Source: Girardia tigrina
Lineage: Eukaryota
Assembly: GCA_001938485.1 (NCBI GenBank)
Contig: MQRK01218208.1
Location: forward strand, 1-58,692
Direction of reading: 5' to 3'
DNA: 58,692 bases
The first letter of the stretch is position 1. Every line of letters starts with the position of its first letter. Of the stretch, positions 9,514 through 58,573 are shown in pieces. Position numbers and translations under genes: made by a program. The notes beneath the pieces were generated by a model. The model had not been told where the DNA came from and made no database searches. It saw nothing but the letters and a program-made list of their open reading frames with translations.

Positions 9514-9567
<54 letters not shown>

Positions 9568-34996: not shown

Positions 34997-37900
34997 TGTA
35001 AGGATGATTTATAAATTATGATTGTTGTTGATTTAATTCGTGTAACTTTGGTATGATGTTCGGATGTGTTTATGACTCTCTCTGTGTATATATTAATTGT
35101 ATTTTTATTTAATGTATATGTGAGGGATAATTTGAAATGTTGTAAGTTTGTTGTTTGTATGCTGTTTAGATTTGTGACTCTCCTACTCAGATGGGATTGA
35201 TATGTTATTTGATTGATTATTTGAATCTAATATAATTAATTTAATGATATTAATTTTAAGTACTAATTAATTAAAGTTTGATAATTATATAATATCATAA
35301 TTATAATAAAGCATACTATCAAGTTGAACTTAAATCAAGTTGAATCAAAGATAAAAACGGCATTCTCGACAAAGAATTGTCAATATTGTTTTAAAAGAAT
35401 GCCTTTCGGAAGAGCGGTCGCTTCGGCTACCTTTCAAGAACAAATGGTAAAAATTCTTGTGGAATTGAACTGGATGGAAGCAGTCGTATACCTACATGAT
35501 ATCTTGATATTTTCTAAAGATAAGAACGGACATCTACAAAGAATATAGAATGTGTTTCAAAAAATCAAAGAATCAGGTTTGAGGATAAATCCAGAGAAAT
35601 GTCAACTTCTAGTAGAAAAGACCAAGTTTATGGGCTACGTAATAAGTAAAGATGGTATAGAAACTGATATAACAAAGATTAATGCGATTAACAAGTTTCA
35701 AAACCCATAATGTATTAAACATCTAAGGAGTTTCTTGGGTTTGACAAATTATTACAGAAAATTCATAAAAGATTATACAAGATATTCGAAAGTTTTAGAA
35801 GGTATGTGTGGTAAAAACAAGGATAAGAAAATAATATAGACAAAAGAATGTGACGAAGCTTTTCAGAGATTAAAAGAAAGAATGGTTCAAACTCCAGTCT
35901 TGGCGTATCCAGACTTCGATAAAGAATTTATATTGGATACAGATGCAAGTTTCGATACGATTGGAGCAGTACTGTCACAAAAAGATTCGAGTGGAAGAGA
36001 AAGAGTTATTGCATATGGTTCTCATAAGATGAATAAACATGAACTTGGTTATTGCATTACCAGAAAAGAATTACTAGCGATATATTATTTCACTCAGCAT
36101 TTTAAGCATTTCTTATATGGGAAAAGATTCTTGTTGAGAACAGACCACAAAGCTATTACGTTTATTATGACCACAAAGAACCCAATAACACCGCAATTTC
36201 AAACATGGATAAATTTTCTCAGCGGTCTTGATATGAGAATGGAATACAGGAAAGGTGAAAGACACTCAAATGCAGATGCTATGTCGAGAAACTCTTGTGA
36301 ATTATGTAGTCAATGTCAAACAACACATGAAGAAGCAAAAAAATGAAAGATTAAAACTCGAATTCTAGCGATACACGAAGAACCAAATAGTTTCAAATGG
36401 CAGAATGATAATGAAGAAATCGAACAAATCAAGAAAGATTTGAAACAAGGAATAACAAATAAATGGAAACTGAAAGATGATATTGTAGTAACGGAAAATA
36501 ATAAGTACTGGATCCCGAGAACAAATAGAACCGATTTTATTGAAGATATGCATAAGATGTTATGTCATGCTGAGAGTAAAAAGGTTTTTAACTACCTCAG
36601 AGATGATTTTGATATGGAAAANNNGAGAGAAAAGATAAAAGAAGTTGTTCAAAGTTGCATAAATTGTCAAAAGCGAAAAACACTAACTGCGAAAACAAAA
36701 GAAAGACATATTAAGTAATTTGCAGATGAACCTTTTCAGAAGATATATACCGACTTTTGTGGCCCATTCAAGAGAAATGTTAATGGATACCAGTATATTT
36801 TGGCAATAATTGATCAATTTAGCCGATATATTAGCTTGAACTCAGTTGCTCACCGAGACGAGAGAACACTACGGAAAATATTGCTGGATAGATGGATATA
36901 TAAATATGGATCACCTAAAGAAATCCATGTGGATAGAGGCAAAACATTTGAATCAGAACTATTTAAAGAAACACTGAAGAAGTTTAAGATAGAAGTATTT
37001 AATTCAAGCCTGTATCACCACAATACCAATGAAATTATAGAACGACAATTTAGAACAATTAGAGATGCTCTTAATATCAGAATAAAGGATGGAACGCATA
37101 GAGATTGGACGGAAGTATTGTCAGAAATAGAATTTATGATGAATAGTACCATTCAAGCTACGACAGGTATCTCACCAGCAGAAATAATATATGGAAGGAA
37201 ATTAAGACATTGGTTGAAAAATAAAGAAGATAAAGGAAACCAAATGGGAAAAGAAGGAAAAGCTCCAGAAATGAGAAGAATTTTCAAAGTTGGAAACCAG
37301 GTATTGATAAAGATAGAAAATGCATCAAAAGAAGACGACCGATATATTGGCCCTGCAATGATAATAAGACGGAGACATGTAAGAAGTTACGAATTGCAAC
37401 TCGACAATGGTAAAATATTAATAAGAAATGTAGAATGGCTAAAGCCATTTAAATCGAGGGGGATGTGAGGAATAATTGTGAATGTTGTAAGTTTGTTGTT
37501 TGTATGCTGTTTAGATTTGTGACTCTCCTACTCAGATGGGATTGATATGTTATTTGATTGATTATTTGAATCTAACGAAATTAATTTAATGATATTAATT
37601 TTAAGTACTAATTAATTAAAGTTTGATAATTATGAATTTTATTAATATTTTCAGTAAACGATTTTAACTTATTAAATTTAATATATTTTAAAAATTAATG
37701 TTTATTTAAAAAATTACATAATGTCTTTTTATCCAATAAAATTATGAGAAATTAAAATGTAATATTAAAATTTCCCATTCGTTGATTGTTTCATATTTGA
37801 ATATGTAATCAAAAACTATATCAATCAAAGAAAGATGACCTCTGAAAATTGTTGTGAAGAATCTGTTTGTGTTGTAAATAAATGTTTGCATTCAAATTGT

Positions 37901-40900
37901 GATGTTGTTAATAGTATATTTTATAATAAATATGTGTTGTTTAAATATTTCAAATTAACTTGAAAAAGAAGCACAAAATTTGAAATTGAAAAACTGTGGA
38001 TTATAAAATAAATTTTTTTGTTAATGAAAACGTTTTTTGATTTCGGATTTATTAATAAAACCGGGAAGGAAAATAAATGTCAATTTTCGAAAATTAACAT
38101 GGCGACCACGACCATTGCGACACCGAATATTGAGGGTCCCGAAAAATTCGATGGAACCGAATCGAAACTTGAGTAATTTATAAAGAACTTCGACCGTTAT
38201 ACTCAAATTATTGGCCTTGCAGAAGAAAGGAAGGTAATTGTTGTAGCTGCATATTTAACGTCCACAGCAGTTTTAAAATATGATGAAGCACCCGGAATTA
38301 CATTCGATGAAAAATTAAAAGCAGCATTTACGAAACCAAAAACGATATTAGATATAATGAATGAACTTGTTAATCTCAGATTGGAATCTCAGGATCCGGA
38401 TATTGTCTTCAAAAAAGCAGATGAACTTATTGAAAAGCTCTGTGAAAAGAAAATTGGAAAGAAAGAATTATCAAATTTAGTATATATAAATGTTGTCAAT
38501 GACTATGAAGTTAAAAGAGAACTGGTGTTGAGAGGCACATCTGATACCAGAGATATCAAATATATCGTAAAAAGAGTTCATAAATTAAAGAAAATGAGCG
38601 AAGAAACGGTTGCAGCATATACTACAAATGATAACAAATGGAAAACTGTAAAGAAAAAAAGTATCAGCCAAGAGAGGAAACTCGTCAAGTCAGGAGAGAT
38701 ATGGTACAAGAAAGTAAAAAACAGATACATCTAACACATTTCATTGTGCGTTGTTGGGCATGTCATAAAGAAGGACATGTAAGAAGAGAGTGTCCAGAAG
38801 TCAAATGTTTATTTTGTCATAAAAAGGACACTATAAGAGTCAATGTTATGAGAATCCGCATAGATTTGAGGAAAAAGCAGAAAACAGAAGAAGAAAAGAA
38901 AGAATCGGGAATAAATTTAATTCATGCAGATCCCAAAGTAGAGGACCAAAGAAAAAAGGTACTCAGCGGCAGTTATAAATGAAAACGAGTATGATGGCCC
39001 GAACGAGATGCAAGAAATGAACAAAATGTATGGAAAAACAGAATTTTTCAACAGAAACTACCAAAATTCAAAATGTGAGTTTGAGTGTATAGAAAAATGC
39101 TATGACTATGTGGAGCATTTTGATAAGAATGTAATATTTGATTTAAGTAGAGAAATTAAAACAAAAACACAAAGAAAGAATTTTAATCCCTTAGCAATAA
39201 AAGTAATGACAATAAAGACCTATTGAAAATAGATGTATTGAAAATAACTTGTTTGAATATAAGATACGATAAACTAAATGAACGACCAAATATTACGTTC
39301 CAAATAAATGATAGATATTGATTGTGTTTTAAATACTGGCGCCAGGGTAAATTTAATTAAGGCCGACTTATTAAAAAGTATGACAGATGTGAAATTAAAA
39401 GATTCAACGAAACACATATATTGTGCAAACGACTCGGAATTGATAACTTATCGTACTGTTAAATTAATCATCAATATAAAAGAAGTAGAAACAAATGAGT
39501 TTTATGTTGTTAAAGAAATTGTTCCGGAGATGATTGCCTGGGTTGACTTTCTTAAGAAATTCAACATACGACTACCAAAAGTTATGCAAGGATAACGACA
39601 GATTTTGCACATCAAAGACAACAATTTAGACAAAGAAAGAATGATTCGAAGGAAATAATTGTATAAAAGTATAAATGAAAGAGAATTATGGGATATTTTA
39701 ATTGAATACAAGTCCATTTTTATGGCAAAGAAATGGGATGTTGGAAAGACCGATTACACGAAACATCTGATTCAAACACAAGGTGATCCAATACTTGTGA
39801 AGCCGTACAAAAAGTTGAAACACTTTGAAGAAAAATTGGAAGAAATCCTCAGAAATCTGGAAGAAAATGATATAATAGAGAAACGCATATCACCTTGGAA
39901 TTTTCCTTTAGTGTGCGTATGGAAGAAAGAGAAACAAGAAATCAGATTGTGTGTGGATTTTCGTCAGCTTAACAAAGTAACAATAAGACCAGTATTTCCA
40001 ATGCCAAATATCGATGATATGCTGAATACATTAAATGGAGCACAATATTTCAGTACCATTGACCTAAGAAACGCTTACTATCAAGTAGAACTAGAAGAAG
40101 AATCAAAAGAAAAACAGCATTTTCGACAAAAAGTGGACAATATTGCTTTAAAAGAATGCCATTTGGAATTGCGGCAGCACCAGCAACATTTCAGGAACTT
40201 ATGGTAAAAGTTCTTGGAAACTTAAATTGGAAGGACTCAGTGGTATATTTAGATGACATATTGATATTTTCACGAAATAAAGAAGACCATATTCATCGTA
40301 TAAAAAATGTTTTTCAAAGAATAAAAGAATCAGGCTTCAAAATCAATCCTGAAAAGTGTCAATTTTTAGTGCGACAGACAAAATTCTTAGGTTACATTAT
40401 TAGTTCAGAAGGTATTCAGACGGATGAAATAAGATAGAAGCCATTAAACAATTTCAAATTCCATCTTGCATCCATTTACGAAGTTTCTTAGGCCTGATCA
40501 ATTATAATCGAAAGTTTATCAAGGACTACGCAAGATACTAAAAAGTATTGGAAGGAATGTGTGGTAAAAATAAGAACAAAAAATTAATATGGTTGGAGGA
40601 ATGTAATGAAGCGTTTAATAAATTGAAAGGAATGATGATGACAACACCAATTTTGGAATATCCAGATTTTAATGAAAACTTTATTTTGGACACCGATGCC
40701 AGTTTTGACACTATTGGCACAGTTTTATCTCAAATAGATGCTCATGGTAGAGAAGAGGTCATTTCTTATGGATCCAATAAGATGAACAAGCATGAGCTTG
40801 GTTATTGTATCACCAGGAAGGAACTGTTAGCAATTTATTATTTTACCCAACACTTCAAGCATTTCCTTTACGGGAAAAAATTCTTACTAAGAACAGACCA

Positions 40901-41021
40901 TAAGGCGATTACGTTTATGTTAACAACAAAGAAGCCGATTACACCTCAATTCCAAACGTGGATTAATTTTCTTAGTAGTCTTGACATGGACATTGAATAT
41001 AGAAAGGGTAATTTGCAATAA
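34997..41021 (+). mobile_element. Ty3/Gypsy element E: 5' LTR 34997-38099 (split by element A), PBS at 38100, gag ~38099-38980, pol ~39250-41021, truncated in RNase H
   Basis: TGTAAG...TTAACA LTR, PBS TGGCGACCACG; PEKFDG, CCHC knuckle CWACHKEGHVRREC, LNTGA protease, LCVDFR, MPFGI, YLDD, FILDTDAS; many stops. Confidence 0.88.
35119..37913 (+). mobile_element. Ty3/Gypsy element A, internally deleted: partial 5' LTR 35119-~35290, RT-RNase H-integrase 35324-37468, PPT, 3' LTR 37464-37913
   Basis: Perfect 5-bp TSD GTATA (35114-35118, 37914-37918); PPT GAGGGGGA; DTDAS, HHCC zinc finger, D-D-E core, GPA motif. Confidence 0.92.
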
Positions 41022-41106
41022 ATTGTAGTTACATAATGGCAATAAAATGTAATAGAATAAAATATAAACAGTAAAGTGTTGCTCTGTCCCGTACTTCGAA
41101 GGTGGC

Positions 41107-42545
41107 TCAAGGAGTTGAATTAGGGAAAGTTGAATCGTCGTCAGTTGTTGGAATGCAATCGCAATTGGAATTGAAATTTTCAACTTCTTCGTCACATAAT
41201 TTCTTTTCTGAGTGCGCATATTTATAACATTTCTGTTTAATTGGTGTCTCATCTAGCAATGGAATGGGGTGTTTCACGACTTTGCACTCCGTCAAATCGT
41301 AATCGGATTTTGCGAAAACATTTTTATATTTCATTATCAAAGCTATGACTTTACTCCGTTCTTCGGGCGTTAAATTCTCATTGTNAATTTTTATGTCACT
41401 TTCATTTATTTCTTCTCCTTCGGATGGTTTCACAATTTCGACTTCTGTCGTATGTATGATGTGACCCATTCTAGAATTCGGTCTTATTTTCACGTCTTCA
41501 TCGTTAAAATTTGTCAATTGTATTGGTATCTCGCCCCTTTCATTTATGGCCACTAATGTTGCCGCGGTTGCTACTTTATAACTCTTATCGAAATGTTCAT
41601 ATGGCTCGTAAATTACCTCTCCTTGACCTTTCACTGGGCTTTCTACACACATATACACGGTCGATCTCCTTGGAATTACAATTTCTTCTTTCGCTCGTAC
41701 ATCGACTGTTTCGTATGGAACTCCACTTTTGTGCATCAATTTCATTGTTGATAGATCNNNNNNNNNNNNNNNNNNNNNNNNNNNNNNNNNNNNNNNNNNN
41801 NNNNNNNATCTCCTTGGAATTACAATTTCTTCTTTCGCTCGTACATCGACTGTTTCGTATGGAACTCCACTTTTGTGCATCAATTTCATTGTTGATAGAT
41901 CCAATACACCTTGGGGTATCAGTCTCAGAAATAAATCGGTTCCTATTAGAACTGGTACATTTATTTCTCTTGCTATATGAATTTCAGTATTTATCCTTGT
42001 CGACATATAACTTATTTCACACTGTAATTTTCCTTTAAAATTGATCGTTTTTCCATTTACTCCTACAGCACGATTATCATTGTCTTGCAATATTACGTCT
42101 TTATATTCTGTAGGTAATATAACATCATATCGGATTACCGAAATATTTGCTCCGGTGTCGATTAAAGCTTTCACTTTCCGTCCGTTTATTTTTACGTCTA
42201 TTTTCATCAATGGGCCTTGTTTCTCTGTCAATGCATTGACTGAATACGTTCCATAGATTAAATTATTTTTTGGTATTGCATAATTTATTGGAGTGGCTTC
42301 CACAGTTGACTCTGACGTTGTTACTTGTTCTGTTCCGCTTCTGATAATGCATGGAATTATTAATGATGATGGTCGAGCTGGTTTCCCTATTTCGCTTATT
42401 TTTTCGGTCGTTTTTTGTACGTACTCTTTGTCGAATGAAGTTCGAAGCTTTGCTTCTTGTTTTAGAGTTTTTAATTGCGACATTGCCTCGTTTGCTCCGT
42501 CTCCTCTCCTTCGAGCCTCCTCGGCTAGATTTTTGATAAAGCTGA
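41107..42545 (-). mobile_element. Gypsy fragment D: protease, dUTPase-like spacer domain and start of RT
   Basis: ALIDTGANISVI, LIGTD, EIVIPRRS...IPIQLTN....VKI..NSRMG, FAKSDYDL..C.VVKH.I.L....PIKQ. Confidence 0.8.
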
Positions 42546-45500
42546 GATTTTTCCATAACTCTTGTTGCCTTCAAAAGTTTTTCCCCTATCTGATAAAAAT
42601 GATCTGGGTTTCACAAATCGATAAATCCATCTATTTTTAATAGCAGCAATCAACGTGTTTTCATCTTGATTACGAAGTGGCACCAATACAACGACCTTGC
42701 TAAATTTATCAACCAAGTACATATTTCTTTCCCGTTTTAGAAGGTCAAAAATGTGCAATATCCAATACAACTTCTTCAAATAATGTTTTATCATTTCGAG
42801 GTAAAAATGTCTCCTTAGATGGTGTTGTTTGTACCTTCCGTTTTGCACAAATAACACATTCTATAGAAACTTTCTCAATTGTCTGTCGCATTTGTGGCCA
42901 GAAATAGATATCCCGCATATATTCATACAACTTCTTATATCCTATGTGACATAAATCTTGATGAATGTACTGAATTAATCAATGTTGAGCAGCTTCTGGG
43001 ACAACCACGCGTTTTATATGTCCATCCCGATAGAACACCAATTCATCTTCTAATATCAAGTGATTAATGTGTTCCCACAAGGGACCTTGTAACTGCAAGT
43101 CGTATTGAAAACCCAACAGATCTTCAATCCATGTCTGAAATTGAGAACTGAGTGGTATGCTTGTCTGGGACATAAATAAAAGTGCTTTATGATCGGTACG
43201 AGCCAAGAACTTTTTTCCATATAAATAATGCTTGAAATGCATCATGTAATCTCTTAATGCTAGCAATTCCTTTCTGGTAACACAGTAGCCCTTTTTGTGC
43301 TAAATCAGGGTTCTCAATCCGTAAACTATCACCAGTTCCGATCCATCTTCTTGAATTTGACTTAATACCCCTCCAATAGCAGAGATGCTGGCATCTGTAT
43401 CTAGCAACATTTTTTGGTTAATATTAGGGAAGTATAATACCGGACTTGTAGAAAGACACTTTTTAACTTCATCAAAACTGTCTGCACACTCCTGTGACCA
43501 GTAAAATTTCTCTTTAGCGGCACTGACCGCATATAAAGACTTTGATATTTTAGCAAAATCTTTGATAAATCGCCGGTAGTAATTGATAAGACCCAAGAAA
43601 GAACGCAATTGAGTTGCACATTTTGGAACCGGTGCTTCATTAATCGATTTGATTTTATCTTCACAGGTTTCTATTCCTTTGCTACTTACTACATGTCCTA
43701 AAAATCTAACTTCAAACTCCTTCAAACGGCACTTCTGAGAATTGATTTTAAGACCTGCACTTGCAGTACGACTAAAATCTTCCTCGAGCAGAACATCATG
43801 ACCCTTCTCAGAGGAACTGTACACTTCATCCAAAAACACAAATACTCCTTCATACAGCATATCGTGAAATATTTGATGCATTAAAGCTTGAAAAGTTGCT
43901 GGAGCAGTGCACAATCCAAAAGGTAAGCGATTTTCAATTTTGACTCCTCTGTCAACTTCATTTGGTAGTAAGCACTACCCAAGTCGATAGAAGAGAACAT
44001 AACTGCTCCACTCAGTGCATCCAAAAGGCCGTAGGTATCTGGCACCGGAAATGTGAATTTTTCTGTAATCGCGTTTAATGGTCGGAAATCCAAGCACAAT
44101 CGAATATTATTATCCTTTTTCTTTACTACTACCAGATGAGAGTTCCATGGATTTTGACACGGCTTTATGACTTGATTTTCTAATTAACTGCTTTATCAGG
44201 ATATTCACTTCAGTTTCCAAATGTAGAGGACATCTTCTCTGATTTATGGCCACTGGTGAACCAGTTGTTTTAATGTGGTGTTTTAAAACCGCTGTGTGTC
44301 CCAAATCGAAAGTAGAAGCCATGAATATATCTCCATATTGTCGAAAAATATTGTGGATATTCTTTGAAGCAAAAATATTAAGTGCTTTGTCCACTCTCAA
44401 CTGAGTATTTATCTTTACAGCTGCTTCTTGTGTTTGCATCACGAATACTTCTTTAAGATATACTCTGAACATCTTCATGATGTCTATGCCCCCGATAAAG
44501 ACTGGTATTAAGGCCTTCACAACATATACTTCAATTGTATTCTGTTTGTGGCCCCATTGAACGTTGATTTTACTTTTATCTAAACATGCTCCACTGCCCG
44601 ACGAAAAAGCACCCATCAACTTCTCACTTGACGGTTTCAACGGTGGACCACCCATTTCCTTCCAACATGATACATCCATTATTGAAACGGAGGCTCCTGA
44701 ATCCCACAACATCTCGAACTCTGTCTCATTGCATACAACCCTGCTCCCTAATCTACCATCTCTCTTCTGATACATCTTCTTATTCTTCTCTGTATTTTTT
44801 CTATCTCTGAAATTTATTTCCTTTATTGATGCAACCCGACGGACGAGATAGCTATCGTGGGTTGCGGACCATTTTTTTCTTGCTTCCCAAATTGAACTTC
44901 TGAGTTGCTGTCTGAATCATTAAAATCCTTGATGTCTTCAATCAAATCTTCTTCTTCTTGTATGCATAAAATTGGTTGTGAGGTGGCTTCTCTCCTATTG
45001 GATTTGTGTATTTTATAACAATCTCGAAAATTATGACCTTATTTCCCACAAACTAGGCATCTTCCATTTAAAGGACAGTCAATTCTTTTATGTCCCGCTT
45101 CTCCACAACAAAAACAGTGACCCGGTTTTAAAAGTTCAGGCCGTGGTTCTTGTCTTCCCCAAGCCCTATAACAATATCTCTTGGCAATCGACTTCATTGA
45201 TTCGTTCGGTAAATTTCGTTGTTGGTTCGCTAGTATTGGCTGATTATTGGAATTTTCATTTTTAATTATTAATTGTTTGTTTTCCCTTCATTGTGGTTGG
45301 TGAAATCCCATTTTCCGAGGTTGATAATTATCCATGTTTAGTTTTCTAACAGCATCAGAATATTCTATTTGGTAAAACTGCTGCGACTGATTTAGGAGTC
45401 AATTGCTCTAGCATACTGGCTGTTAGGTTGGGAATTATCTTCCATTCTAAATCAAAAACAAAAAAAACTTGCAAAAATTTATTAATCTAACAGTTTAAAT

Positions 45501-48500
45501 TTGTTATTTAAACAAATTTACTTTTTTTATTTTCTTTTTTTTATTTCTATTTTCTATTATTTTTTTTAATTTCGATTATAATTCGAAATTTTTAAAAACC
45601 AAAATTCTTATTTCTGAAAATTAAAAAATTAACAACAACACTCTCTTACACCCCCGCACGCAAGAATTTTTTAATTTTCTCCACATTTCTTTCACATGTT
45701 TTACCAGACATATCTTCTATCATGTACTTTTCGAACTACTTTATATGGTCCGTCGTATCTCCCTTGATCTTTTGTTCGAGATTCTACTTTTACCAATACA
45801 TCATCTCCTGGGAAGAATTTTCTTCGCGTGATAGGCTCCTGGTCCCGTTCATATTGAAATGTCTTGCTATTTTTTCCATCCCATTTCTCCCTGCTAATGC
45901 GTCTTCCGAAAATGATTTCAGCTGGACTCATCCCGATAGTCGTATGTAATGTGGCATTTAATGAGAACTCGATCTCCGGTAGAATTTCAGCCCAGTCGGA
46001 ACTTTTTCTTTCATGCAATGTTGCATTTATATATTCTCTCACCGTACGGAATTGTCGTTCAATTTGTCCGTTTGTGTTATGATGATATGGACTGGAGAAT
46101 CTAATTTCAAAATTCTGTTTCTCTGCGAACTCTTTCATCTTTTTTTGATTCAAAAACCTTACCGCAATCCACATTCATCACCTTGGGAGAACCAAATTTC
46201 AGTATCCAATTCCGCATTATTCCTTTTATTATCGACTCTTCATCTTGTTTCGATATTGCTAATAACGTAATGTATTTACTGAACTGATCAATGATACCTA
46301 TAATATATTTCTTTTTCCCAGAAGTCTCCTTCAATGGTCCACAAATATCTACATAAATACATTCAAAAACCTCTGCAGCTTCTAATTTTATCGTGTTCTC
46401 TTTTGTTTTTGCCGTATATGTTTTATACTTTTGGCATGATTCACAACTGCGTATAATCTCTTTGATCTTACCTTTCAGCTTGTCAAAATCCTTAGTCTCT
46501 TAAATAATACTCAACTTTTCTTGCACCCGCGTGTGCCAACATCCGATGGGTTTCCCAGATAATATCTTCGAGTGACTTTGTGGTTTCATCTTCTGATACA
46601 ACATCCAGTGCACGCGTCTTGATTTTTTCTTTCTTAGCTTCCTCGTGTTGCGTCAAACATTGAGTACATGTATCACAATTCATCCTTGATAGCATATCAG
46701 CATTCGTGTGCAAAGATCCTTTTCGAAATTCTAACTTCATATCCAGACTGCTCAGATAGTTAATCCACGTTTGAAACTGGGATGTAATGGGTTTCTTAGT
46801 GTTCAGCATAAACGTGATTACTTTATGGTCGGTACGCAAAGTAAACCGTTTACCATACAGAAAATGTCTAAAATGGTTATAAAAATAATACATGGCAAGC
46901 AATTCTTTTCTTGTAACACAATAGCCTTTCTCGTGGCTATTCATTGATCGCGACCCATAAGCTACAACTCTTTCTTTTCCTTGGTCGTCCCTCTGTGCTA
47001 ACACGGCTCCAATCGTATCGAAACTAGCATCCGTATCTAGAATAAANNNNNNNNNNNNNNNNNNNNNNNNNNNNNNNNNNNNNNNNNNNNNNNNNNNNNN
47101 NNNNNNNNNNNNNNNNNNNNNNNNNNNNNNNNNNNNNNNNNNNNNNNNNNNNNNNNNNNNNNNNNNNNNNNNNNNNNNNNNNNNNNNNNNNNNNNNNNNN
47201 NNNNNNNNNNNNNNNNNNNNNNNNNNNNNNNNNNNNNNNNNNNNNNNNNNNNNNNNNNNNNNNNNNNNNNNNNNNNNNNNNNNNNNNNNNNNNNNNNNNN
47301 NNNNNNNNNNNNNNNNNNNNNNNNNNNNNNNNNNNNNNNNNNNNNNNNNNNNNNNNNNNNNNNNNNNNNNNNNNNNNNNNNNNNNNNNNNNNNNNNNNNN
47401 NNNNNNNNNNNNNNNNNNNNNNNNNNNNNNNNNNNNNNNNNNNNNNNNNNNNNNNNNNNNNNNNNNNNNNNNNNNNNNNNNNNNNNNNNNNNNNNNNNNN
47501 NNNNNNNNNNNNNNNNNNNNNNNNNNNNNNNNNNNNNNNNNNNNNNNNNNNNNNNNNNNNNNNNNNNNNNNNNNNNNNNNNNNNNNNNNNNNNNNNNNNN
47601 NNNNNNNNNNNNNNNNNNNNNNNNNNNNNNNNNNNNNNNNNNNNNNNNNNNNNNNNNNNNNNNNNNNNNNNNNNNNNNNNNNNNNNNNNNNNNNNNNNNN
47701 NNNNNNNNNNNNNNNNNNNNNNNNNNNNNNNNNNTTTCTTCTCTTTTTTCCACACACAAATTAATGGTGTGTTCCAAGGTGAATTACACTTCCGAATGAT
47801 ATTATTATCATACAAATTCTTTATAGTCTCCATGATTTTTTCTTCGAGATGCACTGGTTGACGAAAAGGTTTTAAATTAATTGGCTCTCCATTCGTCTTA
47901 ATATGATGTTTTGCTAAACTGGTACATACGATATCCCATTTGTCAGCCATGAATACTTCTGCCTGATTTTGAATGACGTCTAATAGTTTTGAATCTACTT
48001 TACCAATGCAATCTAACGCTCTTTTTAATCTCTCTCCTGGCCTTATCACCCTGCCGAATTTCGCCTCGATGTTACACACACTTCCAGGTGCTTCCCTTGA
48101 TGCATTATTGTCTTGAGGTTCATTTCTTTGTATGGAATAACCGAAAATTTTCATGAAGACTATACCTCCTATCAGTTCCGGAACCACACTCTCCACAACA
48201 ATAAATGTTACTGCTTTCCTTGTCTGACATACATTTACTTCTACCTCTATTTTACCCAATACTTTCAATTTTCCATCGTTGGCACCTCTCAAATTGATAT
48301 CGCATTTTTCTGACACCAAATTATTTAAATCTTGATAATACTTCTTACTCATAACATTAACACCTGCTCCTGTATCCAACAAACACTCCCACTGTTTCCC
48401 CTGAATTTCCACTGTAACGCTCGGACGCCCCTGCATTTTACTATAACATATTTCTGATTTCTGATCCTCAATCAACGCGTTAACATAAAATACTTGCTCA

Positions 48501-50580
48501 AAATTCTTTTTCACAAATCCATAGACCTTATTCATCGTTCGTACATCCAGCTCGCATCCGAATCCGTGGGAATTATCTTCTAAGATCATTGGCACTCGGC
48601 TCCCACCAACTCCCCAATTGGCGGAGCCCAGTCGTTTAGGTACGTCTTGTCGTTTTTTTCTTCATTATCATCAAATGTGCGTTCTTCATCTTCGTTCATC
48701 GTGTTGATTTTAAATCTTCGATCATTGTTCTGCATTCTCGATCTTCCATTGTCGTAATTATAATTCTGTCTGCTAGAGTTCACTAAACATGCCGCTGCTA
48801 GATGCCCATTCCGGCCACATTTTTCACAGCGTATCTCTGGACATTGAGTTCGCCTATGTCCCTTTTTTCCGCACAAGAAATGAACTAATGGCTGTTTGTT
48901 AGGACAGTTTCGACTGATGTGCCCAGTCTCTTTACAATTACAACACTGCACATGTCTTCTTTGTTGGCAGTTTCGGCTGAAATGTCCTGGTTGATGACAA
49001 GTATAACATTTGGACTCTGATTTGGAGGTTGATTCCTCTCTTGGGAGTTGTTTTCTCGGCTGACTCTGATTTACCCATTTTTCAGTTACCTCAGGAGCCC
49101 TGTTGTTTTGAACAACCTCTCGATAACTTCGGACAGCATTGATCCTGCTCTTCTTTTCGTGGTTTATTTCGTCTACGAGTGCAACGAACTCAGATATTTC
49201 CTTGACACTCTTTAATTTCCGTAATTTAATTTCACGAACAACATCTTCATCATCAATGCAATGAATTAACATTTGAGCTTTTAACTCTTCTTCCTCGAGT
49301 CTATGCGACAACGCCTTTTTTACCAACCAATCTACCTTTTTGAAAAAGGTCTGTGCGTTATCAGCACCTTTGCGATAACTCAACAGTTTTTCCCAATCCG
49401 TCGCGGCTGCTCTCGGCTTCTCAAACGCTAGTCTTAGCCGATCCTCAAAACTATCAGCTTTACCAGCTGTGTTCTCATATGCTTCCAAGAGATCTTCATG
49501 TATCATGGAGTAAATACATGTTTGCCATTTCTTTTAATTAATTTCCGCTGCTTCAAAATATCTTCTGCAGCGAGAAATAAATTTCTCAAGGTCTTCTCCG
49601 ATCTGGAACATGTCGGGAATCAGTCGGTTCGTGATTGAATCCGCTAGCGCNNNNNNNNNNNNNNNNNNNNNNNNNNNNNNNNNNNNNNNNNNNNNNNNNN
49701 NNNNNNNNNNNNNNNNNNNNNNNNNNNNNNNNNNNNNNNNNNNNNNNNNNNNNNNNNNNNNNNNTTTTTATTTTCTTTTTTTTTATTTCTATTTTCTATT
49801 ATTTTTTTTAATTTCGATTATAATTCGAAATTTTTAAAAACCAAAATTCTTATTTCTGAAAATTAAAAAATTAACAACAACACTCTCTTACACTGGCCAT
49901 TGTAAGACGCTTTTCTGACGGCATATCCGGTTCTAAAATAAATGCTTCTCGTAGGTTATCATTATGTATGCCATGTACTGCAAATGCTTTAATAATTTCA
50001 TCCATTGCTTCTGGCGTCTTAAAAATTTCGGTAACTAATGATCTTACCCGTAACTCGAAACATTGATATCGTTCATCGTGTCGTTGAGAAACGTTGCTCA
50101 GCTCCTCGACTTTGTCCATGACACTCCTCGGTCTGATAAATGTTGATAGAAACCATCTGGACACTTCTTCGTTCGACAAATCTTTCCGATTTGCACTAAA
50201 TTCGTTCCATAACAGACGGCAGTCCCTTCGTAGAAGCATGTCGAAGGTAAATGACATTTTCATTTGGTTGAATAATGCAAACTCCTTCGTTTCGTCCAGC
50301 CATTTCCCTGCGTTATCCGATTTACTATCAAAAAATGATACCTTCGGTGCCAGTGCTTCTTGAGCAGGAAGTGGTAATTTTGAAAATAATTTTCTTCTCT
50401 CTTCCGCTCTGCTCACTGCGCAAATCACCGGTTCGGTTTCGAGATTTGAGTGGCTGTGGTCACCAGTAAGAACACAATCGAAATCCATCAAGAATAAATA
50501 TATTTAAATTCTAACACAAATAATCAAATATTAAAACAACAACAATAATTGAATATTAAAATAACATTCAATTATCCAAC
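42545..50580 (-). mobile_element. Ty3/Gypsy element C, split by element B: LTR remnant and PBS ~50456-50580, gag 49893-50488 continuing 45420-~44800, protease/RT/RNase H/integrase ~44775-42545
   Basis: PBS TGGTGACCAC; gag frame restored on removing B (KRLTMAS|MLEQL); LWDSGAS, CLDFRPLN, APATFQ, LDTDAS, integrase core truncated. Confidence 0.87.
45421..49892 (-). mobile_element. Ty3/Gypsy element B, structurally full length (~4.5 kb): 230-bp LTRs (45421-45650; 5' LTR ends 49892, partly in gap), gag ~48586-49650, pol ~45647-48595
   Basis: TG...CA LTR, perfect TSD CTGGC (45416-45420, 49893-49897), PPT 45651-45660, several CCHC knuckles, LLDTGA, FILDTDAS, integrase with GPY. Confidence 0.95.
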
Positions 50581-50959: not shown

Positions 50960-52471
50960 GTGACAAAATGTGAAACCCCCCTTTCAAATCACGTAGCATT
51001 GAGGTAATTTCCCCTTCTGAAATGGTCTTTTATCACAGTAAAAGTACTGCTACTAGGATTTTTGAAATAAATTTTGTCATGACATTGTACGATTAATAAC
51101 ATGAACGAACTAGTACGGATTTGTTTTGCATCCCATTCCTCACTTTCTGATTTAAAAAAATCACCATTATGCTCAGAATTATCTGGATCAATGAACTCAG
51201 CATTGGTAATATAATGTAATAATCTAATAGTATTATTCAGAAAGTGTGGTATGTAACTTAATATCGACCCCCTCTCACACTCCGTAACGCGTCGTTACGA
51301 AAATGTGACTTCCCTTCCCGTCTTAGCGCGTTACTTAATCTAATAATTTTGTTTTTTCAAAATATAAATTTTTTTCTATCATATTATGTACAACGAATTT
51401 TACAATTCTAATTTTATAAATTTCTGAAGTTCAAAATATCGATTATTCATTTATCGTTTTGTGAGACGATTGTTACTATTTCAAAGGATGAACCACAAGC
51501 AGAGGTTCTATTAAGAACGAAACATATTGCTATTTTGATGAGTTATAAAAGTTTTCTGTAACGATATTTTTGATTTATTCTCTGTTCGAACAAAATCAAT
51601 AATGATTTTTAAAATATTTTGATTTACATTTGTGTTTAATTTAAGAAACAATTATTCTTATTTTATTTATTTGATGTCAACGTTTAATTAAAAAAAACTC
51701 AAGAAACAATCTGTCTTCTTTGATTAAATTTTCCCTTTTTATGCTGGAATTATGCCTGCCATTCTCGTCACATTTAATAAAATAAGATCTTGTTACATGA
51801 TAAATATAATTCCCTATATTTGTGTTTATGCATCACGGCTTTTGATTCTGACATTGTTAAAAAATAGGAGATATGATTAAATACATAAAAAAGTTGATAA
51901 AAGGTATCAAAACTGATATAAAATCGTTAAAATATTTCATTGAGCAGAATATAATTTAATGATACTAACTTTAAATTTATCGTTAATATTTAGACAGTGA
52001 TGTATTATAATTTAAATAAGTTAAAAGTAATACCGTTCCTCGTCGTATAAACGCAAATCATAAAAATTAATATTTCAAAAATTGACACCCTTGAATACTC
52101 TGTATTATCTTTCATAAAACTGAAAAAAAAGTATTTGTTAGTTACATCAATATTCAAATTCATAGAAATATAAGTATTAACTATTAGACCAGCAATAGAG
52201 AGTGCATTTATAAATATCTTAATATTCTAAATAATACCAATTTTTACACACTTTTTTATAAGCTTCATCTGTCTGTATGGTACAAATCTTGTTATCGATT
52301 TTTCAACCACTTTACAATGTTAAATTAAGCTGAAACGTTGCATAGTTACTCATTTCCAATGACAATGCATGAACCAATTAACACATATTTTTAGTGCGCG
52401 TTTAAAGTATAAAAAAATTAATTTTTTAAATATATTATTATTATTAAATATATTTTAAATATATTAATATA

Positions 52472-53312
52472 TTCTTCGGCACCTCCCCCCCGGGGGGGTT
52501 GTAACTAGCTACCGCGCACGGTTACCATGGCAACGGTCGCGATCACCTTAGAAACGCTTCTGATTGGTTCCTGGTTCCCTAGCAACGGTCGCGATTAACT
52601 AAAAACACTTCTGATTGGCCCTTGGTACCTTAGCAACGGTCACGGTTACCATGGCAACGTTCACCATAGCAATGGTTCCGGTTCACTTGGAAACGCTTCT
52701 GATTGGTTCCCGGGTCCTTAGCAAAGGTTTCGGCTCCTCGGGTTTGGTAACCAAGGGACGTTTTTCCTTAGCAACGGATACAGTGATCAAAGGTAGTTGT
52801 AACCATGGTAACGGTTCCCATATCCATAGCAACCGTCACCCCGTAACTAAGGACCGTAGAAAAAAGTACTAATCGATCACTGTACAGTGCTCAGAGGTGC
52901 TAAGGAATATTTTGAAAGTGCTAATCGATAGTGTACATTTTGCCGCACATTTCTAATGTGCTAACACAATGCCTTTTAAGTTGCACATGTGCAAAAGTGC
53001 AAAAATCAATACATAAATTTTTTTAAAAGTACTTGGGTAAAAAATTGATATCATGTGTTTGATGCACATTTTGATTCTCTATTTGAATGTGCAATTAAAG
53101 ATTTCATACATTGATTAGTTTTCTCTATAATAAGCATAATGTGCAAATTTGCAAAAAGTGCACATTGATTTTAAAGGTACAAGGAAGCAGAATATCAAAA
53201 AAGTGCTGATGTACTGGAATAGTAACCCGCATACGTACATCCAGATTCCATGTCAACATTTTTGAAAAAGTGCTCAAAAATCTATTTTTTCGTACATATC
53301 TGAAACCCCTAT
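52472..53312 (+). repeat. Left inverted arm (~840 bp)
   Basis: Reverse complement of 57686-58493 with scattered mismatches and one indel; terminal CCCCCCCGGGGGGG palindrome. Confidence 0.92.
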
Positions 53313-53465
53313 ATATATTTTTATATTATATATTTTATATGTTATATTTTATATGTTACATAAAACAAAAGTTGTTTTTTACAAGGTATGAATAAAGATA
53401 GGTATAAGACAAGTATTTTTAACAAACATTTATTAACATATGTACAATATTTACAAGTATATCAT

Positions 53466-53540
53466 TCACAAAAGATAATATCCATGAGCTAATGTACTTA
53501 CTCCATCTGACAAAATATGTCGTTTATCGTCGAAGTAGTC
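53466..53540 (-). pseudogene. Inverted second copy of the pPolB C-terminus (3' UTR continues to ~53369)
   Basis: DYFDDKRHILSDGVSTLAHGYYLL* versus DWFDDKRHILSDGISTLPHGYYLL* at 56120-56194. Confidence 0.9.
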
Positions 53541-53550
53541 TTTTCTTGAA

Positions 53551-56194
53551 TTGAAAGACCATAGGGATTTGTTATTGCTAGATGATGGAGAAAAGAGACA
53601 CTTCATCTGGATCAAAAACTTTAAACGCCTTATCCGATCTCAAATATCGAAAAATCATGGAAGTATCGAGATTTGTAAACGATGCTTTACACATTTCAAT
53701 GGAGATGATGCAGCAAACAAGTTTGAAGAGCACAAGGCCTATTGCAATAACAATCATTGTATCAGAGCGGAATTTCCCAAGGAAGATTATATCGAATTCA
53801 AAGAATATGAAAAGACACAGAAAGTTCCCATTATCATATATTGTGACTTTGAAGCTATTCTAAGTCCAATCCAAACATGTAATCCGGATCCACAACTTAG
53901 TAGTACAACAGCCTACCAGTATCATGAGCTATCATCATACTGCATGTATGCATTGGGTATTGACAAGGGGCCATTCCTATACAGAGGTTCAGATGTAGCG
54001 GAACATTTTATGCAACGTATGGAGACTTATGACCATACAAATGAAGACATGTTGCAGCAACACAAGTTCAACATGATGATGACATGGCAAGAAAAATGTG
54101 AATGTAACAAGGTAACACAATGCTACTTGTGTGAAAAACCATTCACAAAAGATAATTACAAAGTCTAAGACCATTGTCATTTTACTGGAAAATATCGAGG
54201 AGCAGCATGCAATAACTGCAATTTGCGATGTAAAACATCTACAAATATTCCTGTTGTTTTCCATAATCTTAGTGGATATGACTCCCATTTCATAGTAAGA
54301 GAATTGGGAAAAATCAAAGGGAACATAAATGTTATTCCAAACAGCAAGAAGAAATACATCACATTTACCAAGCATGTGGGAAGAATTAAGCTCCGATTTA
54401 TCGACAGTTTCCGATTCATGTCATCATCGCTGGTCAGTCTTGTCAAGAACCTTCCAGCAGATGAACTGAAGGAAACAAAAAAGTTCTTCCCTTATACATT
54501 TGATTTGGTCAAAAGGAAAGGAGTATTCCCATATGACTATATAACATCATGGAGATCGCTGGACGAAACAAAATTGCCAGCAAAAGAGGCACTTTACAAC
54601 AAATTGAACGATACCGACATTAGTGATGCTGATTATCAACATGCACAAAATGTCTGGCAAGCTTTCAAATGTCAAACACTTGGGGAATATAGTGATGTAT
54701 ACCTGCAAACAGATGTGCTGCTTCTTACGGATGTCTTTGAGAGCTTTCGAGATGTGACAGTTAAGAGCCACAAGTTGGATCCAGCTCATTTCTTTACATC
54801 ACCAGGAATGAGTTGGGCATCAATGTTGAAATATACAGGCACAAGGCTTCAAATCCTGAAAGATTATGACATGACCCTCATGCTGGAAAAAGGAATCCGA
54901 GGTGGAATCTGTCAGTCTATTCATCGGTATGGTGAGGCAAACAACAAATACATGAAAAATTATGATCCATCAAAGGCATCTTCATACATAACATACTTGG
55001 ATGCCAACAATTTATATGGTTGGGCAATGAGTGCTCCATTGCCTTTTGATAATTTCAAATGGGCGGATCAACCAGAAGAAATTTGAATAGAAAAACTGGA
55101 TCCTAATGGAGATGTGGGTTACATATTGGAAGTGGATGTTGATTATCCAAAATCCATCCATTCAAGGCATGAGCAGCTGCCTTTTCTGCCTGAAAGCAAA
55201 TGTCCACCAAATGGAAAACATAGGAAGCTGCTCTGTCACCTGGAAAATAAACAAAAATATGTAGCCCATTACATCAATCTACAACAAGCTGTAAAGAATG
55301 GGCTCATAATCACAAAAATACATCGTGCACTTCAGTTTAGTCAATCAAATTGGCTTAAGCCATATATTGACTTTAACACCAATTTGAGGACCAATGCCAA
55401 AAACGACTTTGAAAAGGATCAGTTCAAACTGTACAATAACAGCGTTTTTGGTAAAACGATGGAGAATATCAGCAACAGAATCAACATCGAACTTGTATGT
55501 GATAAGAAGCGAGCAAAGAAACTCATTGCCAAATCAAATTTCCACAGCAGCATCATATTCACCGAAAACCTGGTCAGTATACACATGCTGAAGACATCAC
55601 TGATGTTTAATAAACCGATATATGTGGGAATGTGAATCCTGGATCTATCCAAAACCTTGATGTATGACTTCCACTATGGCATCATGGTCCCTAAATTCAA
55701 CAACAATTTACAACTAATGTATATGGATACTGATAGCTTTGTCTATCAGATTCCTACAGAAGATCTGTTTGTGGAGTTTTTTTCAAATGGCTCAACAAAT
55801 GGATACCTCAGATTATCCAAAGGACCACCCAAATTATTCAACATCAAATAAAAAGGTCCTTGGGAAGTTTAAGGATGAAGTCAATGGTCAAATCATCTCT
55901 AGATTTGTGGCATTACGGTCTAAGATGTATGCCATTGATGTGGATGGCAAGATCAAAAAGATGGCAAAGGGAGTTCAGCGGGCAACGTTAGCAAACCAAA
56001 TTGGATTCCATGATTATATGAGAGTGCTGCAGGAACAAATCAATATAATTTCTGAGATGCGAAGGATTCTATCAAGAGAACATCAAGTCTCCACAGTAAT
56101 GATGGGAAAGAAAAGCCTGGACTGGTTTGATGATAAACGACATATTTTGTCAGATGGAATAAGTACATTACCTCATGGATATTATCTTTTGTGA
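53551..56194 (+). pseudogene. Protein-primed family B DNA polymerase (Polinton type), 5'-truncated, three stops and one frameshift
   Basis: CKRC..H..C finger, ExoI YCDFEA, endonuclease-VII-like insert CYLC...DHCHFTGKYRGAACNNCN, ExoII FHNLSGYD, KGVFPYDY, ExoIII YLQTDV, YLDANNLYGWAM, KLYNNSVFGK, YMDTDS. Confidence 0.95.
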
Positions 56195-56344
56195 ATGATA
56201 TACTTGTAAATATTGTACATATGTTAATAAATGTTTGTTGAAAATACTTGTCTTATACCTATCTTTATTCATAAACTTGTAAAAAACAACTTGTAAAAAA
56301 TATATAAAATATATAAAATATAAAATATTCAAGAGCACATTACG

Positions 56345-56480
56345 TTGACATGTTAATATAATGAATGCAATACATTAACATGATGAATGCAATACGTTGA
56401 CATGATGAATTTAATATGTTGACATGATGGATGCAATACGTTGACATGATGGATGCAATAAATTAACATGATAGATGCAT
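56345..56480 (+). repeat. Minisatellite, ~22-bp unit, about 6 copies
   Basis: gttgacatgatg(a/g)atgcaatac repeated. Confidence 0.85.
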
Positions 56481-56579
56481 GGTGATATCTCCTTGGATAC
56501 AGCCATGTTTTGAATGGTTGATATGATAACATAGTATAATATCATAATATAATACATTTATATTATATATTATTCTGGA

Positions 56580-57130
56580 TACATAATGTGCATATGTTCG
56601 AAAAAGCACTACGTATTGATTTTTTCAAAAATCTAAGATGATATTCTGACTATTCATATATAAGTTACTATTCATGTGTTCAAAGAGATTTTTGATATTT
56701 TGCTTACTTCGCCCTTTGCCTAGGCTATATCATATAGGAATTCGACGCCGCTTTACACTATAATACACAACATATCAATAAAGCACTATGTATTGATTTT
56801 TTCAAGAATCTAAGATCATATTCCGACTATTTACCTATAAGTTACTATACATGTGTTCAGGCAGATTTTCGATATTTTGCTTGCTTCGCCCTTTGCCTAG
56901 GCTATACCATATGTATGTTCTGCCTCACTTTACACTATAATACACAACATATCAATAAAGCACTATGTATTGATTTTTTCAAGAATCTAAGATCATATTC
57001 TGACTATTTACCTATGGGTTACTATACATGTATTCAGACAGATTTTCGATATTTTGCTTGCATCGCTATCTATACCCTATGGGCATTCTGCCTCACTGTG
57101 GGCATTCTGCCCCACTTTACACTATATTAT
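56580..57130 (+). repeat. Tandem repeat, ~177-187-bp unit, about 3 copies
   Basis: ctttacactata anchor at 56751, 56928 and 57115; aagcacta.gtattgattttttcaa.aatctaagat repeated. Confidence 0.85.
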
Positions 57131-57401
57131 ATTAAAACATGAATACATTGCACTTTGTACAATAGTGAACTTATTGATTTAACGGCAGTCTAGGCAGCCT
57201 ACCTAGGCTTAGTACAGTATTGATGAGCACGTGTGCAGTATTGATTAGAACATTTATGTAGCACATGTGTAGAATTGATTTTTTACACTTTTTTTTGTGT
57301 AATTTTGATAGTTTTTACATGTTTTCGATGATTTTGAAGGTGTTTTTCATGGTTTTAGATATAGCAGTGATGGTTTCTAAAGTGTTTTCGACTATATATC
57401 C

Positions 57402-57446
<45 letters not shown>

Positions 57447-57685
57447 AACGTTATGTATCATAGTTACGGTAACCATGGTACTTTTGTACATTAGATGATT
57501 ATATAGATGTTTTGTATAGTGCTGATGCATGTTTGAAGTGTAACAGGAATTTTTACGTGTAGATTTTACATGTAAAATAAAATGTTATGTATCTTGGTTA
57601 CGGTAACCACGGTACTTGTGATTATACTTGTGTACATTAGGAGATTCATGAGGTATTGTTTGATGGTAAACAACATACATATATC

Positions 57686-58493
57686 ATAGGGGTTTCAGAT
57701 ATGTACGAAAAAATAGATTTTTGAGCACTTTTTTGAGAATTTCAAAAAATTTCGAAAAAATCGATCTATCAGCACTTTTTTGATATTCTGCTTCCTTGTA
57801 CCTTTAAAATCAATGTGAACTTTGTGCAAATTTGCACATTATGCTTATTATAGAGAAAACTAATCAATGTATGAAATCTTTAATTGCACAATCAGATAGA
57901 AAATCAAAATGTGCATCAAACACATGATATCAATTTTTGACCAAAGTACTTTTAAAAAATTTGATGTATTGATTTTTGCACTTTTGCACATGTGCAACTT
58001 AAAAAGCACTGTGTTAGCACATTAGAAATGTGCGGCAAAATGTACACTATCGATTAACATTTTCAAAATATTCCTTAGCACCTCTGAGCACTGTACAGTG
58101 ATCGATTAGTACTTTTTTCTACGGTCCTTAGTTACGGGGTGACGGTTGCTATGGATATGGGAACCGTTACCATGGTTACAACTATCTTTGATCACTGTAT
58201 CCGTTGCTAAGGAAAAACCTCCCTTGGTTACCGTTACCCGGGAGCCGAAACCGTTGCTAAGGAACCGAGAAGCAATCAGAAGCGTTTCCAAGTGAACCGG
58301 AACCGTTGCTATGGTGATCGTGACCGTTGCTAAGGTACCAAGGGCCCATCAGAAGTGTTTTTAGTTAATCGCGACCGTTGCTAGGGAACTAGGAACCAAT
58401 CAGAAGGGTTTCTAAGGTGATCGCAACCGTTGCCATGGTAACCGACCGCGCGGTAACTAGTTACGACCCCCCGGGGGGGGAGGTGCCGGAGAA
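57686..58493 (-). repeat. Right inverted arm (~810 bp)
   Basis: Reverse complement of 52472-53312. Confidence 0.92.
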
Positions 58494-58573
58494 GGTACAT
58501 TTTTCCCCTAATTATATTACTTGATATAATTTTGAAAATGTTTTTTAATTTTTTTAAATCTCAATAAAATTTA

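Follow-up and report, generated by a model that had tools for sequence, protein, structure and literature searches.

How did an element that carries a DNA polymerase, and no other recognisable Polinton gene, come to carry the end of that polymerase gene a second time, in inverted orientation? The question is raised by one locus of Girardia tigrina. The window analysed here is the 58,692-nucleotide stretch of contig MQRK01218208.1 (positions 1 to 58,692, assembly GCA_001938485.1), taken from an AT-rich, intron-containing assembly of 1.43 Gb that is split in 255,254 contigs. Near its right end, a broken polB gene, which codes for a protein-primed DNA polymerase of family B, lies between two inverted arms. 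An earlier interpretation made from the letters of the window (the sequence-only reading) had taken this structure for a head-to-head fusion of two polB-proximal ends and not a simple deletion derivative. We find that the window element is almost certainly a derivative, by two deletions, of a multicopy polymerase-only element, which we call segment A, and that segment A probably forms a bipartite Polinton together with a second element, segment B, which has the same ends and carries the integrase and capsid genes.

The outer arms of the window element pair over ~850 bp (52472-53318 against 58493-57679, 90%), and the element is larger than was first thought. Its right end reaches the terminus common to the whole family, which is of the AGTAGGGGAAAAATG type and here has one change, and ~19 terminal bases are missing from its left end. 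The hexamer TATATT stands at both flanks (Table 1). Thus, both the target-site duplication (TSD) and the AG terminus reported as absent by the sequence-only reading are present, its limits for the element having been too short. Its statement that integrase, capsid, ATPase and protease are absent was confirmed, as we found none of them between the arms. The polB gene starts abruptly at 53548 and is interrupted by in-frame stops at 54166, 55084 and 55633 and by a frameshift near 55770-55800. It matches PF03175 above cut-off, and six motifs are recognisable in it (53839, 54262, 54700, 54994, 55426 and 55720), which we take to be exonuclease and polymerase motifs. The lost 5' part is, as judged by homology, the terminal-protein/vOTU region.

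Forty loci found via the polB 5' end, many of them gapped or further deleted, revealed the structure of segment A. One order recurs: outer arm, inner arm, inverted C-terminal copy, polB, inner arm, outer arm. Whole copies range from 7.7 kb (L113; C184433) to ~9 kb (L370), with a terminal repeat of ~2.3 kb that includes the polB 3' end; the next ~1.25 kb contain the 5' end of polB. Genes of ordinary Polintons were detected in none of 20 terminus-anchored loci and in none of 56 segment A loci, except for weak integrase matches in three of the latter that look like retroelement flanks or insertions. An 18-base polB site is present in at least 632 assembled copies in the genome, and the exact 15-base family terminus occurs 10,884 times (control, 1); most ends must therefore lie on gene-less, deleted or unassembled copies. 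One gene-less element of 2.6 kb (L372:133-2764; G000:C234356) has two arms and a perfect 6-bp duplication, and derivatives of this kind may account for many of the termini. At another locus (L008:243-749) the segment A polB frame appears to open with a Cys/His-rich extension without a Pfam match. This start would lie within tens of bases of the inverted C-terminal copy, which would place the promoter inside the inverted repeat.

The tree placement of the polymerase that the sequence-only reading had proposed was carried out (FastTree, 44 rows, local support values only), and the segment A enzyme grouped with the polymerases of insect Polintons (Halyomorpha and Rhodnius; 52-54% identity). It is 47% identical to the PolB named Ladona dragonfly adintovirus, and the protein collection contained no close full-length relative (best 54%). 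Three contigs of one cluster of polymerase relatives are 10.5-11 kb long and one contig of capsid relatives is 10.1 kb, lengths that are suggestive only.

Using the integrase of the nearest environmental element (L200) as a query, we found a second integrase family that adjoins the family terminus. On contig C223974 this integrase belongs to segment B, a 9.0-kb element (9435-18479) with all genes on one strand in the order terminus, arm, protease, major capsid protein (MCP), small open reading frame (ORF), putative minor capsid, integrase, small ORF, ATPase, arm, terminus. The repeat of this copy is 0.8-0.9 kb and its flanks read AAGATA/AACATA. Our survey of segment B took in 39 contigs with 55 loci, many of them short. 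On 8 of these contigs the arm is next to the protease side and on 8 it is next to the ATPase side, its position being conserved, and four protease-bearing loci (L433, L436, L437 and L444) show no arm in the stretch read; in the arm-adjacency, exclusivity and C223974 repeat scans the protease query marks a region of DNA and is not a test of the protein. The segment B integrase site is present in at least 149 copies, or about one B for every four A.

The segment B integrase matches PF00665 (E 2.6e-12), the ATPase matches Pox_A32 below cut-off only, and the protease shows His-Asp-Cys motifs and matches the protease of a Polinton at 28%. The MCP matches a Polinton capsid (hhalign 97.2%). Its AlphaFold model (pLDDT 87), on which the protein folds as a double jelly roll, matches double-jelly-roll capsids with an E value of 2.5e-16, and the best solved-structure matches of the model are iridovirus, PBCV-1, Sputnik and mavirus. 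The minor capsid is a putative assignment, made from a weak match and from its position. Public assemblies contain full-length 413-aa capsids, 94% and 86% identical to that of segment B, in clusters of 9 and 26 members, though these may stem from host DNA.

The genes of the two segments were not found together. Segment B genes occur in 0 of 153 A/terminus loci, apart from a single distant integrase match (30%) in a flank, and polB occurs in 0 of the 55 segment B loci, with overlap among the loci. Their ends are common: A and B have the same termini and ~0.9-1.1 kb of outer arm, with an arm identity of 0.858 between A and B, 0.877 among A and 0.864 among B (23 A and 11 B arms). The A and B labels interleave in a tree of the arms and were separated in 0 of 200 bootstrap trees. 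Among nine two-ended elements the 6-bp duplication is perfect in six, including one A, one B and one gene-less element, and a seventh has 5 of the 6 bases. Ordinary one-piece Polintons are also present in the genome (at least 96 capsid and at least 130 integrase matches); their polymerases are 28-31% identical to that of segment A and their ends differ. An ordinary Polinton as helper was rejected: we used the proteins of a distant Polinton to find 60 integrase/capsid loci, and family arms were present at 0 of them. Further Polinton-like elements with their own termini, L167/L168 (G000:C222732) and L173 (G000:C216398), have no recognised integrase and carry cargo ORFs of unknown kind (1,050 aa and 736 aa).

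The polymerase of segment A is under purifying selection. Across 33 copies the pairwise ratio of non-synonymous to synonymous divergence (dN/dS) of polB is 0.26. Variants seen in a single copy come close to neutrality (203 silent to 559 replacement); those in three or more copies number 174 silent to 61 replacement, where neutrality predicts 1:3.8. In the 16 copies whose A structure was seen directly, dN/dS is 0.25 with silent-site divergence (dS) reaching 0.37, and common variants number 95 synonymous to 25 non-synonymous against the same neutral ratio. The polB 5' part gave a value of 0.29 in 40 copies. Therefore, as the structure without integrase rose in copy number, its polymerase was required. 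The accessible portion of a vertebrate Maverick study (PMC8097293) uses this argument to part reinfection from passive complementation. For the segment B integrase, dN/dS is 0.36 and common variants number 29:16. Silent-site divergence is 0.23-0.26 in A and 0.06-0.15 in B.

We consider it likely that these two structures, with their common ends and with 6-bp TSDs on both types, make up a bipartite Polinton in which the segments are copied and inserted as separate units by means of each other's enzymes. The polymerase of segment A, with its fused terminal protein, would prime at the common ends of either segment. The segment B integrase would insert each segment separately, the segment B ATPase, capsids and protease would package each ~9-kb segment, and gene-less elements with terminal inverted repeats (TIRs) would parasitise both. 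A terminal protein fused to a Polinton-type polymerase is given as a domain order in the available part of PMC11071308. We are evenly divided on a broader proposal, namely that the family is a segmented, integrating double-stranded DNA (dsDNA) virus whose capsid is of the double-jelly-roll kind. Such a virus would be a Polinton divided in two, with one segment for replication and one for integration and the virion, each packaged and inserted alone. It would have invaded the germ line of this animal thousands of times, and standard screens that look for all genes within 20 kb would miss it in other genomes.

Several results weigh against a two-segment system. We read a sample of the copies in a fragmented assembly and could have missed a rare one-piece parent. 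The segments differ in copy number (632 polB sites, 149 integrase sites and 10,884 termini), and other complete Polintons of the genome could supply integrase too. Two of the nine two-ended elements have no TSD, and scans of viral contigs with the family terminus and with the segment B capsid gave no match. Finally, selection on segment B is weaker and uneven: dN/dS is 0.66 for the MCP (common variants 16:18), 0.90 for the ATPase (2:2) and 0.76 for the putative minor capsid (35:103, near neutral). The segment B copies in this test were mostly best hits to one copy, and they differ little at silent sites, so that decay after insertion dominates the ratios.

The most serious competing account is that A and B are separate non-autonomous deletion families of a hidden or recently lost one-piece Polinton, both amplified in trans. 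The genes of A and B do sum to exactly one Polinton set, and the environmental relatives of the segment A polymerase are one-piece elements; yet a linked copy occurs in none of the 153 and 55 loci. Copies of the family often lose internal pieces, with 43 different joints in public contigs, but the arms close both types on both sides at fixed positions. Passengers of such a parent should also be neutral, as the ratios of the segment B ATPase and minor capsid nearly are, whereas polB in A-structured copies holds to 0.25 out to the largest silent divergence. We regard this account as unlikely.

Alternatively, segment A could be a self-copying satellite that borrows the integrase of any Polinton, with segment B as a younger germ-line dependent on the A polymerase, in which case there would be no particles and no obligate two-way dependence. 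We think this quite improbable. While the A:B ratio of about 4:1, the greater silent-site divergence of A and the presence of at least 130 other Polinton integrase matches, with AGTAGT-type ends, all speak for such a satellite, the termini of B are the same as those of A and unlike those of the other Polintons, common silent changes are in excess in the B integrase and MCP, and capsids 94% and 86% identical to B's recur in the public-assembly clusters described above.

Within the proposed bipartite Polinton, the window copy is a damaged segment A, and its history can be read from its sisters. The left arm does contain the polB C-terminus and 3' untranslated region (UTR) as an inverted copy: 53387-53540 is 95% complementary to 56120-56273 over 154 nt, and a longer match pairs 53330-53540 with 56328-56120 (90% over 214 nt). 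In the window sequence each arm does sit downstream of a polB stop codon, and the inverted copy does directly abut a 5'-truncated forward polB, the exact joint being at 53547/53548 and not at 53540. A genome search with 53300-53800 returned 3,202 candidates, of which 40 were scored and 19 other loci were fetched. Only the window matches across the joint; the other scored loci match query positions 13-248 or 249-501. The direct joint was seen in none of the 19 other loci, and a search for further copies, as the sequence-only reading had suggested, found the 30-base joint once in the genome, tolerating two mismatches at most. Seven of the 19 loci hold both flanks of the joint in window orientation, 1,196-1,389 bp apart, and the spacer encodes the polB 5' end. 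Since these sisters carry the missing piece, the window copy is a simple deletion derivative. The joint is blunt, and the second deletion (~1.35 kb, left arm) lies at a short TA microhomology.

The parents thus already hold the polB 3' end inside their terminal repeat, the very finding that the sequence-only reading had named in advance as fatal to a head-to-head fusion, and a snap-back mechanism at this locus is therefore unsupported. Its view of the left arm as a duplicate polB-proximal end survives, but for an old, family-wide event and not for an event at this locus, because the A repeat is ~1.3 kb longer than the arm shared with B and because most left copies share deletions. A palindromic defective-interfering replicon does not describe the family either, polB having stayed under selection and a partner element supplying the missing genes. 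We also rejected a snap-back defective-interfering genome for the window copy, whose inverted C-terminal copy is inherited: it is 97-99% identical to the left copies of the best-matching sisters and ~90% identical to its own right end. That template switching at this locus fused two polB-proximal ends into such a replicon is, for the same reason, scarcely credible despite the position of both arms downstream of a stop codon, and the parents carry the inverted copy 1.2-1.4 kb upstream of the same polB position. Local mis-assembly of the joint is unlikely, and a short-read chimera of two family copies is a very poor explanation, for although the family is high in copy number, the assembly fragmented and a joint-bridging contig absent from the public-run pieces listed (all short), the TSD matches on both sides, the window arms are more alike than the arms of other copies, the element contains no gap, and the family-level result is unaffected either way.

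Comparison of the arms suggests copying between the ends. The polB C-terminal region was compared in 24 left and 15 right copies. Most left copies share deletions of 14 and 5 bases, some have right-type sequence to varying depth, and left and right labels cluster, with 4 changes needed. Over the outer 730 bp, the arms of one element are 0.95-0.96 alike, compared with 0.89-0.91 between elements (2-9 elements per bin). The difference shrinks inward and is gone in the innermost bin (0.939 within an element versus 0.943 between elements). From this gradient we infer copying between the ends from the terminus inward, which would follow if displaced strands paired their ends during protein-primed replication. 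Pairing of the arms during strand-displacement replication would have extended the A repeat inward and would still homogenise the arms, and the extra ~1.3 kb of the A repeat would have been copied once, from the right end to the left.

Table 1. Features of the window element (window coordinates)
Feature	Position	Strand	Remark
Left target-site duplication TATATT	52468..52473		identical to 58513-58518
Left outer arm, common with segment B	52474..53312	+	~19 end bases lost; C-run/G-run palindrome near 52482-52498 and 21/51-bp subterminal repeats
Breakpoint of ~1.35-kb left-arm deletion	53310..53318		equivalent of 57679-56328 gone; short TA microhomology
Inverted copy of polB 3' UTR, stop codon (53466-53468) and last ~26 codons	53313..53547	-	family-inherited
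Breakpoint of ~1.25-kb deletion	53547..53548		blunt, unique in genome; polB 5' part lost
Broken protein-primed DNA polymerase B gene	53548..56194	+	
Segment-A-specific inner repeat part (polB C-terminus, 3' UTR, further repeats)	56044..57400	+	22-bp repeats at 56352-56483 and 177-bp repeats at 56598-57128
Right outer arm, common with segment B	57400..58512	+	AGTAG-type terminus at 58496-58512
Right target-site duplication TATATT	58513..58518		identical to 52468-52473

Elsewhere in the window, two stretches spread over ~19 kb (7632-8087 and 26339-26989) are exons of one host gene, presumably pyruvate kinase from its sequence resemblance. Several Ty3/Gypsy-type gag-pol remnants, nested or adjacent, occupy 35840-50500, and mariner/Tc1-like transposase remnants lie at 12.3-19.3 kb, both labelled by resemblance.

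The gene content of A and B together is that of Polintons/Mavericks (eupolintoviruses, adintoviruses): a protein-primed polB, an rve integrase with chromodomain, an A32-like ATPase, an adenain-like protease and a double-jelly-roll capsid, with AGT-starting inverted termini and a 6-bp TSD. Polinton TIRs begin with AG, and AG-type TIRs with a 5-8-bp TSD are found here as well (TSD in seven of nine two-ended elements, one mismatch allowed). The arrangement is what differs. The protein-primed polymerase is on segment A only; the capsid, ATPase and protease are on segment B only; and the integrase, which in Polintons shares an element with polB, is on the polB-less segment B. Described Polintons, as far as the available accounts go, are single pieces of 13-25 kb with repeats of 100-1,500 bp. 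Here the gene set is split over two separately integrating elements of ~9 kb (A, 7.7-9 kb; B, 9.0 kb), with no one-piece form among the copies sampled, and the ~2.3-kb repeat of segment A has the end of its own gene inside.

Bidnaviruses (Bombyx mori bidensovirus) and the Drosophila Vesanto virus resemble the pair, on the partial accounts available, in being segmented, with a Polinton-derived polB on one segment and matching termini. These viruses have single-stranded DNA, parvovirus-type capsids and no integrase; segment B, with its double-jelly-roll capsid and integrase, does not fit Bidnaviridae. Matching termini on two segments are a mark of bidnaviruses in the accessible text of PMC8502044, and A and B are likewise complementary segments with matching termini, known here as integrated copies. 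Vesanto virus may have twelve segments, and the Drosophila adintoviruses are single contigs, according to the available part of PMC8363768. In Caenorhabditis elegans, 10 loci with pPolB1 and a TIR but no integrase are noted as remnants in the portion available of 10.1101/2024.01.15.575659. These loci resemble segment A in having a polymerase beside a terminal repeat without an integrase, and the window copy is such a decayed remnant; gene-less TIR elements are a further kind of partial remnant. Partial Polinton remnants are few, however, whereas segment A has a fixed structure, hundreds of copies, a selected polymerase and a complementary partner.

The yeast plasmids pGKL1 and pGKL2 are also linear protein-primed replicons, one helped by the other, and yeast cytoplasmic linear plasmids are Polinton-derived with the capsid module lost, as the partial sources at hand describe them. 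Each of the two has its own polymerase and its own termini, and, unlike the A and B pair, they have neither integrase nor capsid. The accessible text of PMC6431247, PMC10214139 and PMC12567637 makes no mention of a segmented Polinton, and we found no bipartite Polinton described in the literature, a repeat-library entry being possible (Repbase, subscription journals and supplements lay outside the search). On one metagenome contig an inverted 74% copy of the polB C-terminus lies ~4.5 kb upstream of the gene itself (L252:5318-5448 versus 13240-13370), a possible parallel to segment A. One metagenome holds small TIR-bounded polymerase elements, with polB alone (L241:42-6148, 6.1 kb), with integrase and polB (L240:1-8980, 9.0 kb) and with capsid and polB (L250:4169-13430, 9.3 kb).

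If our interpretation is correct, a split Polinton would extend genome segmentation to double-jelly-roll dsDNA viruses, among which we know of no other segmented case. It would also be a plausible half-way state towards the segmented bidnaviruses, whose polymerase came from Polintons. With the genes for replication and for the virion on separate elements, hundreds of dated insertions would offer a means to ask whether Polintons spread as particles or within the cell, since the selection on each module and its age could be followed independently. The graded homogenisation of the arms would be a genomic trace of the proposed end-pairing replication intermediate.

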